Source of the DNA: Candidatus Woesebacteria bacterium
Lineage (GTDB): Bacteria > Patescibacteriota > Microgenomatia > UBA8517
Assembly: GCA_013374835.1 (NCBI GenBank)
Contig: CP055307.1
Coordinates: 279,315-343,314, forward strand
Length of the DNA: 64,000 bases
Reading direction: 5' to 3'
Positions 56,427-58,077 of the stretch are shown one piece after another (the stretch's first letter is position 1; the number at the start of each line of letters is the position of its first letter). The notes below the pieces were generated by a model. That model had not been told where the DNA came from. It saw only the letters and a list, made by a program, of their open reading frames with translations, and did no database searches. Made by a program: the position numbers and the translations under genes.

Positions 56427-56735
56427 ATGGCTATAGGACGTATTAGGGTGAAACTTAAGAGTTATGATCATCGATTAATTGATGAAGCTGCTTCTAGGAT
56501 ATTGGATACGGCCATGGCAAGTGGGGCAAAGATAGCAGGCCCTACGCCGCTTCCTACAAAAAGAACTATTATACCTGTTCTTGAATCTCCATTTAAGCAT
56601 AAAGACGCACAGGAGCATTTTGAAATTTTGGTTCATAAAAGGCTTATTGATATTCTTGAACCTACAGAAAGAACTATCGATTCTTTGTCTAATTTAGATC
56701 TTCCAGCGGGAGTTTCCGTTGAGATTAAGATGTAA
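56427..56735 (+). CDS. rpsJ: 30S ribosomal protein S10
   Basis: RIRVKLKSYDHRLIDEAASRILDTA...HKRLIDILEPT. Confidence 0.95.
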   Translation: MAIGRIRVKLKSYDHRLIDEAASRILDTAMASGAKIAGPTPLPTKRTIIPVLESPFKHKDAQEHFEILVHKRLIDILEPTERTIDSLSNLDLPAGVSVEIKM

Positions 56736-57283
56736 TGAGGAGTTTTGTCTCAAGAGGTGGAGAAAAGCTTCAAGCGGCTTTGGAAGCTTTTAATATCAAT
56801 CCTGATGGTTTAATAGCTGCTGATTTTGGTGCTTCGACTGGTGGGTTTACAGATTGCCTTTTGCAAAATGGCGTTTTACGAGTATATGCGGTTGATACTT
56901 CTTATGGTGAGCTTCACTGGAAGCTTAGAAATGATCCGCGAGTTGTTGTGAAGGAGAGGACTAATGCAATGCACGTAATTTTACCTGAAAAAGTAGATAT
57001 AATTGTGATTGATACCGGTTGGACTAGGCAAGAAAAAATTATTCCAAATGCTCTAAAGAATTTGAAAAAGAATGGGTTGATTATAACTTTGATTAAACCT
57101 TATTATGAAGCTAATCCCAGCTTGATTCGTAAAGGTAGGCTTTCTGATGAGAGCGTTGACCAAGTGCTTTCTGTTGTAAAACTCAAAGTTGAAATGCTTG
57201 GAATTTGTGTTTCTAAGATTATTGAATCTCCGATTACTGGAGGACGCGCTGGTAATCGGGAGTTTTTAGCTCTTCTTGCTTGA
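56735..57283 (+). CDS. TlyA-like rRNA ribose-2'-O-methyltransferase (FtsJ fold; no N-terminal S4 domain)
   Basis: [16 protein letters not shown]...[53 protein letters not shown] closely matches the TlyA core. The ATG overlaps the last base of the rpsJ stop. Confidence 0.7.
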   Translation: [182 protein letters not shown]

Positions 57284-57365
57284 TTAACGGCTATTTGATA
57301 TAATCAGCCTCACATGGAGGTGGTATTGATATAGACCTCTAGAAACTGGTCGGAGAGCCGAGATT

Positions 57366-57387
57366 GGGCGCCTCTGGCGCTTTTTTT
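57366..57387 (+). terminator. Short GC hairpin plus T7 tract (terminator/attenuator-like) just upstream of rplC
   Basis: GGGCGCC-tct-GGCGC followed by TTTTTTT. The stem is only 5-6 bp. Confidence 0.35.
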
Positions 57388-57399
57388 AATGTAAAAAGC

Positions 57400-58077
57400 A
57401 TGTTAAATACTATTTTGGGACAAAAAACAAAAATGTTACAGGTATTTGTTGAGAATGCTAGAGTTCCCGTGACTGTGGTGAAAGCAGGACCTTGTGTGGT
57501 TACGCAGATAAAAAACTTAAAGCGGGATGGTTATTGGGGTGTTCAGCTTGGTTTTGGTGAAAAGAAGGTAAAAAATATTACAAAACCAATGAAAGGGCAC
57601 TTAAAAGGCGTTTTTCAAGGCAAGAAAGCGCCTTCTTTTTTGGTGGAGATAAGAGTTGATGATGAGCCAGAATTTAAAGTTGGTGACAAGATAGAGTTAA
57701 ATCAAGTGCTTTCAGAGGGAGATTTGGTTTCCGTAACAGGCAAATCTAAAGGAAAAGGTTTTGCAGGAGTAGTAAAAAGATGGGGATTTGCGGGAGGTCC
57801 TAAAACTCACGGGCAGTCTGACAGACATCGTGCGCCGGGATCTATCGGACAGGGAACAGACCCGGGTCGTGTGAGAAAGGGCAAGAAAATGGCCGGAAGA
57901 ATGGGACAGGATAGGGTTACCGTTAAAAATCTGAGGGTTATTAAAATTGATTCTGAAAAGAGAGAGGTTTATTTATCAGGTTCTCTTCCCGGTTCAAAAA
58001 CGACTCCTTTAATAATTAAAAAGATTTCATCGGGTGGGGGTGTTCCCAAGAAAGGAGAGGAAAATGCCGAAAGTTGA
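57400..58077 (+). CDS. rplC: 50S ribosomal protein L3
   Basis: MLNTILGQKTKMLQVFVENARVPVTVVKAG.... The start is set at 57400 rather than the track start at 57364. Confidence 0.9.
   Translation: MLNTILGQKTKMLQVFVENARVPVTVVKAGPCVVTQIKNLKRDGYWGVQLGFGEKKVKNITKPMKGHLKGVFQGKKAPSFLVEIRVDDEPEFKVGDKIELNQVLSEGDLVSVTGKSKGKGFAGVVKRWGFAGGPKTHGQSDRHRAPGSIGQGTDPGRVRKGKKMAGRMGQDRVTVKNLRVIKIDSEKREVYLSGSLPGSKTTPLIIKKISSGGGVPKKGEENAES

Follow-up and report, generated by a model that had tools for sequence, protein, structure and literature searches.

In Bacillus subtilis, the leader of infC-rpmI-rplT acts by a choice between terminator and antiterminator, and we know of no use of an antiterminator by the Escherichia coli S10 leader. 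TlyA methyltransferases of types I and II are both full-length proteins with an S4 domain; structural work presents this N-terminal domain as essential for substrate recognition, and the interdomain RxWV linker motif is required for binding of S-adenosylmethionine (SAM). The two TlyA types have been described (PMC7317525). In Mycobacterium tuberculosis TlyA the S4 domain is essential for methylation of the 50S subunit (R6A and R20A abolish activity), and cryo-electron microscopy of the enzyme on the 50S places R65, Y115, F157 and S234 in contact with helix 69 or at the flipped C2144, which they stabilise (PMC9168844). The E. coli S10 leader requires an upstream hairpin, and its family is confined to Gammaproteobacteria (PMC3616713). 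The locus described here comes from a Candidatus Woesebacteria genome (contig CP055307.1) and was analysed as a window of 64 kb, the whole stretch of DNA in which all positions are counted. In it, an open reading frame (ORF) of 182 amino acids (aa) related to TlyA stands between rpsJ and rplC, and a hairpin followed by seven U precedes rplC. We consider it likely that the locus combines a gene for an S4-less TlyA protein with a separate promoter/attenuator module belonging to rplC.

Predicted promoter, leader and alternative folds upstream of rplC

When the 130 nt 5' of rplC were inspected in all loci, a conserved module was found that stays with rplC, not with tlyA, whatever lies upstream. 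Its parts are a promoter, a 5' hairpin (P1) 8–14 nt after the -10 box, a linker, and a GC-rich hairpin with a run of 5–9 U; the leader is about 75 nt long (Table 1). The putative sigma70-type promoter was conserved in 31 related loci (TTGC of the -35 box in 24–30, the TG extension in 30, TATAAT in 27, and the 17-nt spacer in most). The length from the -10 box to the U-run was steady, at 82–100 nt, and that from the U-run to the rplC ATG was 7–123 nt across loci (12 nt in the window).

Table 1. Positions in the window of the genes and predicted elements at the rpsJ-rplC junction, with the basis of each assignment.
Feature	Position	Strand	Basis and details
tuf	55206-56405		ORF list; ends 21 nt 5' of rpsJ
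rpsJ (ribosomal protein S10, 102 aa)	56427-56735	+	ORF list; stop TAA 56733-56735
tlyA (putative S4-less TlyA-family SAM-dependent RNA 2'-O-methyltransferase, 182 aa)	56735-57283	+	ORF and family searches; ATG 56735-56737, A56735 in common with the rpsJ stop (TAATG)
Putative sigma70-type promoter of the rplC operon	57276-57304	+	conserved in 31 related loci; -35 TTGCTT 57276-57281, overlapping the tlyA stop TGA (57281-57283); 17-nt spacer; TG 57296-57297; -10 TATAAT 57299-57304
Possible mini-ORF	AUG 57314 to UAG 57334	+	overlaps P1; few nt from the predicted 5' end
Leader hairpin P1 (UGGAGGU / ACCUCUA)	57315-57341	+	minimum free energy fold; near the predicted transcript 5' end
Predicted antiterminator helix	57349-57378	+	minimum free energy fold of the window leader, covariation, permutation test; strand a GUCGGAG 57349-57355 with CUCUGGC 57372-57378; strand b GCC 57357-57359 with GGC 57367-57369
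Predicted intrinsic-terminator hairpin and U7	57366-57387	+	terminator scan, pairing over 30 sequences; GGGCGCC 57366-57372, loop TCT 57373-57375, GGCGCTT 57376-57382, T7 57381-57387
rplC (L3)	57400-58077	+	ORF list and L3 N-terminus alignment

Both hairpins of the leader were supported by compensatory changes. P1 covaries across species (GUGG/CCAC, CUGUG/CGCAG, GAUGA/UCAUC, GAGA/UCUC and GGAGG/CCUC), with 85–87% pairing and changes on both sides in 3–4 of its 5 pairs. The terminator hairpins have stems of 5–9 bp and free energies of -6 to -14 kcal/mol; 95.3% of terminator cells were paired over 30 sequences, with CG-to-UA compensatory changes. A third helix, the predicted antiterminator, joins two upstream strands (a and b) to the 5' arm of the terminator, to the loop and to the 3 nt with which the 3' arm begins, and as it uses the terminator 5' arm and loop, the two structures would be mutually exclusive. 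Examples of this complementarity are CUGCAGG..GUACC / GGUGC-CUGCGG, CCAAG..GUGCC / GGGCGC-CUUGG, GCUGGAU / CAUCCGGC and CUUGAAG / CUUCGGG. The inner helix (b:b') was 88–91% paired, with compensatory changes. Column 131 of the alignment, in the terminator 5' arm, covaries with column 145 (CG:20, UA:7) and also with column 88 in antiterminator strand b (GC:20, AU:6), a three-way covariation that is characteristic of two helices which exclude each other.

Folding pointed in the same direction. In transcripts ended 4 nt into the 3' arm of the terminator, the antiterminator was the minimum free energy fold in 27 of 30 species. The upstream segment of each species paired more stably with the loop of the same species than with the loops of others (mean -7.5 vs. 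-6.1 kcal/mol; permutation p~5e-5), and the full-length leaders were near-isoenergetic, with mean energies of -23.8 kcal/mol when the terminator was enforced and -22.9 kcal/mol when it was blocked. The hairpin with its U7 run is therefore strongly supported, by sequence comparison, as the terminator of a terminator/antiterminator switch 5' of rplC; the sequence-only reading of this DNA had suggested that it could be a partial terminator or attenuator, and the terminator scan, covariation, permutation test and alternative folds all agree with that view.

An alignment of all leaders made by MAFFT alone misaligned the middle region, and the antiterminator was scored instead with a seed subset, covariance models and alignment-free tests. 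One covariance model (R1) was built from 12 leaders of other species, with neither the window nor its near relatives; it gave exactly one match per locus, always just 5' of rplC, a single match in the 64-kb window (57305-57388, E=3e-5), and zero matches in 370 kb of control loci. A second, broader model (R2) matched the window with E=1e-9, the window being part of its own alignment, and gave 27 matches at E<0.01, all of them 5' of rplC. Cells of P1 and the antiterminator taken together were paired at 82–83%, vs. 73–74% in shuffled alignments, and cells changed on both sides numbered 30–42, vs. 10–14 in shuffles, with 0 of 500 shuffles as high and slid controls far lower. Weak matches at E of 0.05 or higher at L019:2566-2667 (the 3' end of tuf and its terminator), L008:4851-4896 (minus strand) and L088:5056-5152 (minus strand) were judged to be chance.

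Several points weigh against this account of the leader. The outer helix (a:a') was just 60–66% paired in the model-fitted alignments; its register varies between species, so that its support comes mainly from the per-sequence folds and the permutation test. Two things inflate the shuffle statistics: the fitting of the alignments to the structure, and the phylogenetic relatedness of the sequences. Folding of the 5' part alone gave no consistent pairing that could serve as a conserved anti-antiterminator, and transcription start, termination and read-through are all inferred from DNA sequence.

In the mechanism that we propose, tuf, rpsJ and tlyA would form one transcription unit with tlyA as its last gene, translationally coupled to rpsJ, as suggested by the start/stop overlap and the lack of a promoter-like site. 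Transcription of rplC, rplD, rplW, rplB and the following genes would start at their own promoter and, together with read-through from tlyA, would enter the leader, where it would terminate at U7 or read into rplC when the antiterminator forms. By analogy with L4 at the E. coli S10 leader (PMC3616713) and L20 at the B. subtilis infC leader (PMC1865079), an operon-encoded ribosomal protein present in excess, with L4 as the first candidate, would attach to the leader and tip the balance towards the terminator; the likely candidate site for such binding is P1, which has a conserved GGUGGUUCGUC loop.

The same promoter and hairpin could also be read as an independent small-RNA gene of about 75–80 nt, or as a plain terminator of tuf-rpsJ-tlyA, with no control over rplC. 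A promoter of its own, a canonical terminator and a steady length between them suit this interpretation, and so does the variable distance to the rplC ATG. In most loci, however, that distance is 7–45 nt, which leaves no space for another promoter, and the 12 nt in the window leave no room for one either. Where the upstream genes lie on the opposite strand, as in some relatives, rplC and the genes after it must be transcribed through the terminator. Neither a stand-alone small RNA nor a plain terminator would be expected to come with a covarying antiterminator over the terminator, and the element tracks rplC, not tlyA, the model having no other matches at E<0.05. We hold this interpretation to be improbable.

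A further possibility is that the attenuator senses translation, and not a ribosomal protein: a ribosome on a near-leaderless mini-ORF would sit over the linker and keep the antiterminator from forming, so that the terminator forms when translation capacity is ample. Of the 31 leaders in which the promoter was mapped, 30 have an AUG or GUG 8–14 nt after the -10 box, and a stop codon comes in frame 6–11 codons later (MEVVRQT and stop, for example), and in most sequences the stop codon lies 13–16 nt 5' of antiterminator strand a. When the mini-ORFs are compared, several of the changes are synonymous and fall at third codon positions, and the TATAAT found 11 nt before the tuf ATG suggests that very short 5' untranslated regions are in use. 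Against this, GUUCGUC, the most conserved loop motif, was found in each of the three possible frames when counted from the start codon, which argues for a constraint at the level of RNA and not of peptide; a conserved leader peptide was down-weighted on the same ground, as GUUCGUC changes frame between species. The G/AUG lies within P1, whose pairing accounts for its conservation in most sequences, quick in-frame stops are expected in AT-rich loops, and the mini-ORF has no Shine-Dalgarno sequence. A translation-sensing leader is thus improbable, and the binding of a ribosomal protein is preferred. A minimal AUG UAA was also seen at 57389-57394, between the U-run and the rplC ATG, and is not kept in the closest relative, L004.

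In the boldest form of the argument, the leader would represent a class of attenuator not described before, and would control the entire S10-spc ribosomal-protein supercluster of Woesebacteria, perhaps also that of other bacteria of the Candidate Phyla Radiation (CPR). It would sense translational capacity directly, through the mini-ORF of 6–11 codons and/or the Shine-Dalgarno-like GGAGGUG, so that plentiful ribosomes would block the antiterminator and shut off transcription, and the S4-less TlyA would be a third TlyA type, able to act with no canonical domain for rRNA recognition. We attach a low probability to this combination.

Additional structures were seen in some of the loci. In a sub-group (L015:3725-3752, L021:4647-4682, L032:3975-4008, L088:3883-4000 and L092:3884-4000), the stretch from the U-run to the rplC start codon holds an extra conserved hairpin (GUUGCNC...GCGCAAC), and L088 and L092 have an added structured stretch of about 120 nt with CCCUCC/GGAGGG. 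The extra hairpin, absent from the window, may be a second, translational operator. Four distant CPR-like loci (L103:3860-4000, L122:1841-1940, L117:2346-2482 and L141:2997-3111) have a TATAAT, a hairpin, and a GC hairpin with a U-run 5' of rplC; S10 is about 61–62% identical in L103, L117 and L122. Models R1 and R2 found no match at E<0.4 in these four loci. They also have plausible loop-complementary upstream segments (GGAU...AUCC in L122, for example), and the attenuator design may reach beyond Woesebacteria.

To our knowledge, the regulation of ribosomal-protein synthesis in CPR bacteria is essentially undescribed, and we found no description of CPR ribosomal-protein leaders in the literature. 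A compact switch of about 75 nt, supported by covariation and placed before the largest ribosomal-protein operon, would make autoregulation testable in uncultivated organisms.

The junction between rpsJ and rplC

The junction was surveyed in two ways: a tlyA-anchored scan of 80 GTDB species loci encoding the closest S4-less TlyA proteins, and a separate L3-anchored set of metagenome loci searched for gaps between rpsJ and rplC. The order tuf-rpsJ-...-tlyA-...-rplC was present in 19 of the 80 species loci, all 19 Woesebacteria-like and among the top matches, and a protein look-up gave the identical tuf-rpsJ-tlyA-rplC order for L002. In the loci with tlyA at the junction, the gap between rpsJ and tlyA was 0–1.7 kb and that between tlyA and rplC 0.1–1.1 kb, and the gaps hold unrelated ORFs, several of them on the opposite strand. 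Among 12 Woesebacteria-like loci of the L3-anchored set with both rpsJ and rplC, the gap was 113–2635 nt, and tlyA lay in it only at L084; in the more distant bacteria of this set the usual gap was 2–40 nt. The leader was present in the absence of tlyA at many loci, for example L085 and L096 (rpsJ-rplC gaps of just 194 and 151 nt), tlyA was directly 5' of rplC in contig L101, which stops short of rpsJ, and tlyA is placed elsewhere in other Woesebacteria, for example in the complete genome CP011214. In a neighbour-joining tree, a weak method, most junction tlyA genes grouped in a single broad clade, a sub-clade of which has the gene relocated.

The cargo of the junction was classified by eye, with no Pfam scan, as NUDIX-, histidine-phosphatase-, nitroreductase- and metallophosphoesterase-like, membrane, helix-turn-helix and toxin-antitoxin-like genes, on both strands (examples: L021:1287-4683, L084:1365-4001, L015:1719-3753, L088:2123-4001 and L092:2825-4001).

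A single rpsJ-tlyA-rplC... S10 transcript, in which the hairpin and U7 would be a leaky terminator that tunes dosage and the output of the methylase would be locked to that of the ribosomal proteins, is another reading of this gene order. The start of tlyA overlaps the rpsJ stop, the order is kept in the 19 species loci and L002, and the stretch from the tlyA stop to the leader has no terminator, which makes read-through from tuf-rpsJ-tlyA likely. However, a strongly conserved promoter stands between tlyA and rplC, the leader goes with rplC past intervening genes, including those on the opposite strand, it occurs without tlyA, tlyA is found elsewhere in other Woesebacteria, and a covarying antiterminator implies termination that is regulated and not fixed. 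A single transcript of this kind is improbable in our view. Two claims of the sequence-only reading are not supported, on the same evidence: that methylation is tied stoichiometrically to ribosome synthesis within the S10 operon, since a conserved sigma70-type promoter separates tlyA from rplC, and that tlyA is embedded in one conserved S10 transcript, given the unrelated genes at the junction, the leaders without tlyA and the relocated tlyA genes. The survey of related S10 operons that it had proposed did recover the tlyA insertion (19 of 80 loci and L002), but other genes, opposite-strand ones included, also occupy the junction.

We propose instead that rpsJ|rplC in Woesebacteria is a putative transcription-unit boundary and a variable, insertion-tolerant cargo site. 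As the promoter makes the junction an operon boundary, the stretch 5' of it tolerates insertions; the junction behaves as an insertion hot-spot, and tlyA is its commonest passenger within one Woesebacteria clade. The break in the rpsJ-rplC order thus reflects an operon boundary serving as a landing pad for cargo, a case that calls for caution against inferring function from gene position alone.

The start of rplC was placed at ATG 57400, which fits the aligned L3 N-termini of 20 loci; TTG 57364, given by the mechanical listing, was ruled out. Downstream of rplC the genes are, in order, rplD, rplW, rplB, rpsS, rplV and rpsC. From tuf to rplD, the five encoded proteins have 94–98% identity to those of the Candidatus Woesebacteria metagenome-assembled genome (MAG) UBA1430 (locus L004); S10 of the window is 69–98% identical to S10 of the relatives by tblastn, and the Pfam domain Ribosomal_S10 is recorded for the L002 ortholog.

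Some further features of the neighbourhood were observed. A 12-bp terminator-like hairpin followed by AGUUUUUAG was given by the terminator scan at 57229-57260 (plus strand), inside the coding sequence of tlyA, at its 3' end; it may serve to terminate the tuf-rpsJ-tlyA unit, or may have matched by chance. The spacer between fusA and tuf (55094-55205) has a promoter-like TTGACA-17-TAATAAT, followed by a hairpin and U-run at 55124-55148, and a second TATAAT at 55189-55194, just 11 nt 5' of the tuf ATG (55206). No obvious Shine-Dalgarno sequence precedes rpsJ, tlyA or rplC, which, with the spacing of the tuf TATAAT, suggests that this organism uses very short leaders or initiates in a leaderless-type manner. 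Directly 5' of rpsL-rpsG-fusA-tuf, one ORF of 2342 aa (44936-51964, plus strand) has Rpb2 (beta) domains at aa 65-1078 and then Rpb1 (beta') domains at aa 1376-2264; rpoB and rpoC appear to be fused there in a single reading frame.

The S4-less TlyA protein

The 182-aa protein matched the Pfam family FtsJ over residues 4-178 (E=1e-26) and the TlyA model TIGR00478 with 136.5 bits over model positions 54-227 only (E=8.5e-40 for TlyA models). Its best matches in the PDB were TlyA chains (3opn, 3hp7 and, from M. tuberculosis, 5ks2 and 7s0s; E=1e-27 to 1e-32); the next rRNA methyltransferase after TlyA in the NCBIfam search was RlmM (E=0.01), and its NCBIfam matches included no RlmE model. The AlphaFold2 model, with a predicted local distance difference test score (pLDDT) of 94.3, superposed on TlyA C-terminal domain structures with template modelling (TM) scores of 0.90–0.94 and root mean square deviations of 1.4–2.0 Å; the top 6 Foldseek matches were all TlyA structures, and the next family had a TM score of 0.67.

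The protein begins right at the interdomain linker, its N-terminus aligning to RAWVSRGAHKL of M. tuberculosis TlyA, and consists of this linker and the class-I methyltransferase domain, the N-terminal S4 domain of about 60 aa being absent. The tlyA frame has a stop 2 codons 5' of the ATG and the DNA further upstream is rpsJ, so the S4 domain cannot be encoded 5' of tlyA. Much of what the sequence-only reading had said of this gene is thereby confirmed: an FtsJ-fold methyltransferase with a TlyA core and no S4 domain (upheld by the FtsJ, TIGR00478 and PDB matches and by the AlphaFold2 and Foldseek results), a start codon overlapping the rpsJ stop at 56735, and a TlyA-core peptide, located here at residues 32-77. 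The comparison with the TlyA and FtsJ families that it had called for left TlyA as the family of all top structural neighbours. On these grounds, the 182-aa ORF is predicted to encode a domain-minimal, SAM-dependent RNA ribose 2'-O-methyltransferase of the TlyA lineage, a variant and not a canonical member. Counting against this assignment, the protein missed the curated NCBIfam cut-offs for TlyA (TIGR00478, 136.5 vs. 185.8 bits; NF049952, 95.7 vs. 250), a shortfall consistent with the absent S4 domain.

The catalytic tetrad K-D-K-E (K11, D93, K121 and E176) is invariant in 30 homologs and aligned to the tetrad positions of the PDB TlyA chains, which in M. tuberculosis TlyA are K69, D154, K182 and E238. 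The linker R2-S3-F4-V5 aligns to RAWV of 5ks2; in the consensus of the family, xxFVSR, the place of Trp is taken by F, Y or W. The aromatic residue and Val of RxWV are kept in the S4-less family and the Arg is not conserved. R65, Y115, F157 and S234 of the M. tuberculosis enzyme correspond to R7, Y57, W96 and S165; among 30 family members R7, W96 (Phe to Trp, still aromatic) and S165 are invariant and Y57 is at least 90% conserved. The conservation of K-D-K-E and of these equivalents of helix-69-contact and base-flip residues leads us to propose that the S4-less enzyme probably still 2'-O-methylates an rRNA cytidine at a helix-69-type site. The positions C1409 and C1920 and the link with capreomycin would be carried over by analogy from canonical S4-containing TlyA.

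The alternative is that, having lost S4, the methyltransferase left rRNA helix 69/helix 44 and modifies another RNA (a tRNA, a different rRNA site or an assembly intermediate) or needs a separate RNA-binding partner. The essential role of S4 in recognition of the 50S by M. tuberculosis TlyA (PMC9168844) is a reason to expect a partner or another substrate, and weighs against the proposal above; the scores under the curated TlyA cut-offs also fit a changed role. On the other side, R7, Y57, W96 and S165 are conserved family-wide, and no conserved adjacent S4-like or partner ORF was seen, the neighbours varying by species (judged by eye, with no Pfam or domain scan). A change of substrate or a need for a partner is accordingly rated as unlikely, and methylation at a helix-69-type site is retained. 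An S4-less family that keeps the helix-69-contact and base-flip residues would be a natural test of how much specificity is held by the catalytic domain, and bears on ribose methylation of CPR ribosomes.

Homologs of the protein number in thousands, and the best 120 are all of 179–201 aa. The frame opens just a few codons before the xxFVSRxGxKL start in about 70 of the 83 related loci, and the rest have longer upstream frames; the uniform length of the best 120 homologs and the upstream frames in most of the 83 loci argue that the absence of S4 is no truncation artefact. The short-start form was seen in Woesebacteria, WWE3, Uhr-, Yanofsky- and Saccharibacteria and in Phycisphaerae/Planctomycetota, and these proteins, of about 180–195 aa, make up a large putative S4-less subfamily of Patescibacteria and Phycisphaerae, with species loci numbering in the hundreds. 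No literature on S4-less TlyA that mentions Patescibacteria was found.

The S4-less TlyA proteins of Phycisphaerae/Planctomycetota (L029, L038, L042, L050, L059-L069 and L073-L080) are 49–58% identical to the Woesebacteria one, and the patchy spread over distant phyla could be due to horizontal transfer. Several loci with the Woesebacteria-type tuf-rpsJ-tlyA-rplC synteny and 75–89% identity in EF-Tu/S10 (L005, L007, L010, L013, L014, L019, L020 and others) are titled "uncultured Gammaproteobacteria bacterium"; this label on MAGs with Woesebacteria synteny is probably wrong.

Comparison with known systems

With RlmE/FtsJ, the 2'-O-methyltransferase of 23S U2552, the window protein has in common the Pfam FtsJ domain and a single-domain architecture with no appended RNA-binding domain, but its family matches and structural neighbours are TlyA. 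With TlyA of M. tuberculosis (Rv1694, type II) and Campylobacter jejuni (Cj0588, type I) it shares the class-I/FtsJ-type domain (37–40% identity, TM scores of 0.90–0.94), the K-D-K-E tetrad, an RxWV-like linker (RSFV, the Arg of which is not conserved in the family) and the equivalents of R65, Y115, F157 and S234; it differs in having neither the S4 domain of about 60 aa nor the C-terminal extension, and in scoring under the NCBIfam cut-offs.

The leader had no gathering-score match to Rfam 15 in the window, and no relevant one at E≤10 in 56300-57600, the presence of an E. coli S10 leader model in Rfam 15 not having been confirmed; a blastn search of a leader against E. coli genomes, a crude test for rRNA mimicry, also gave no match. 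The leader is thus a candidate family missing from Rfam 15. Like the E. coli S10 leader, it is a structured leader whose terminator hairpin and U-run lie just 5' of the first gene of the operon for L3, L4, L23, L2 and others. It differs in showing no sequence or Rfam similarity, in standing before rplC and not before rpsJ, in having three elements in about 75 nt and not five hairpins in about 170 nt, and in its explicit covarying antiterminator.

The B. subtilis infC-rpmI-rplT leader, controlled by L20, is likewise a case of ribosomal-protein genes under transcription attenuation in a 5' leader (PMC1865079). It belongs to another operon and another protein, is about 200 nt long (PMC1865079) as opposed to about 75 nt, and has no sequence similarity to the window leader, for which protein binding is a proposal. 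The leader upstream of rplC would thus work like the known ribosomal-protein attenuators, with a position and an antiterminator of its own.

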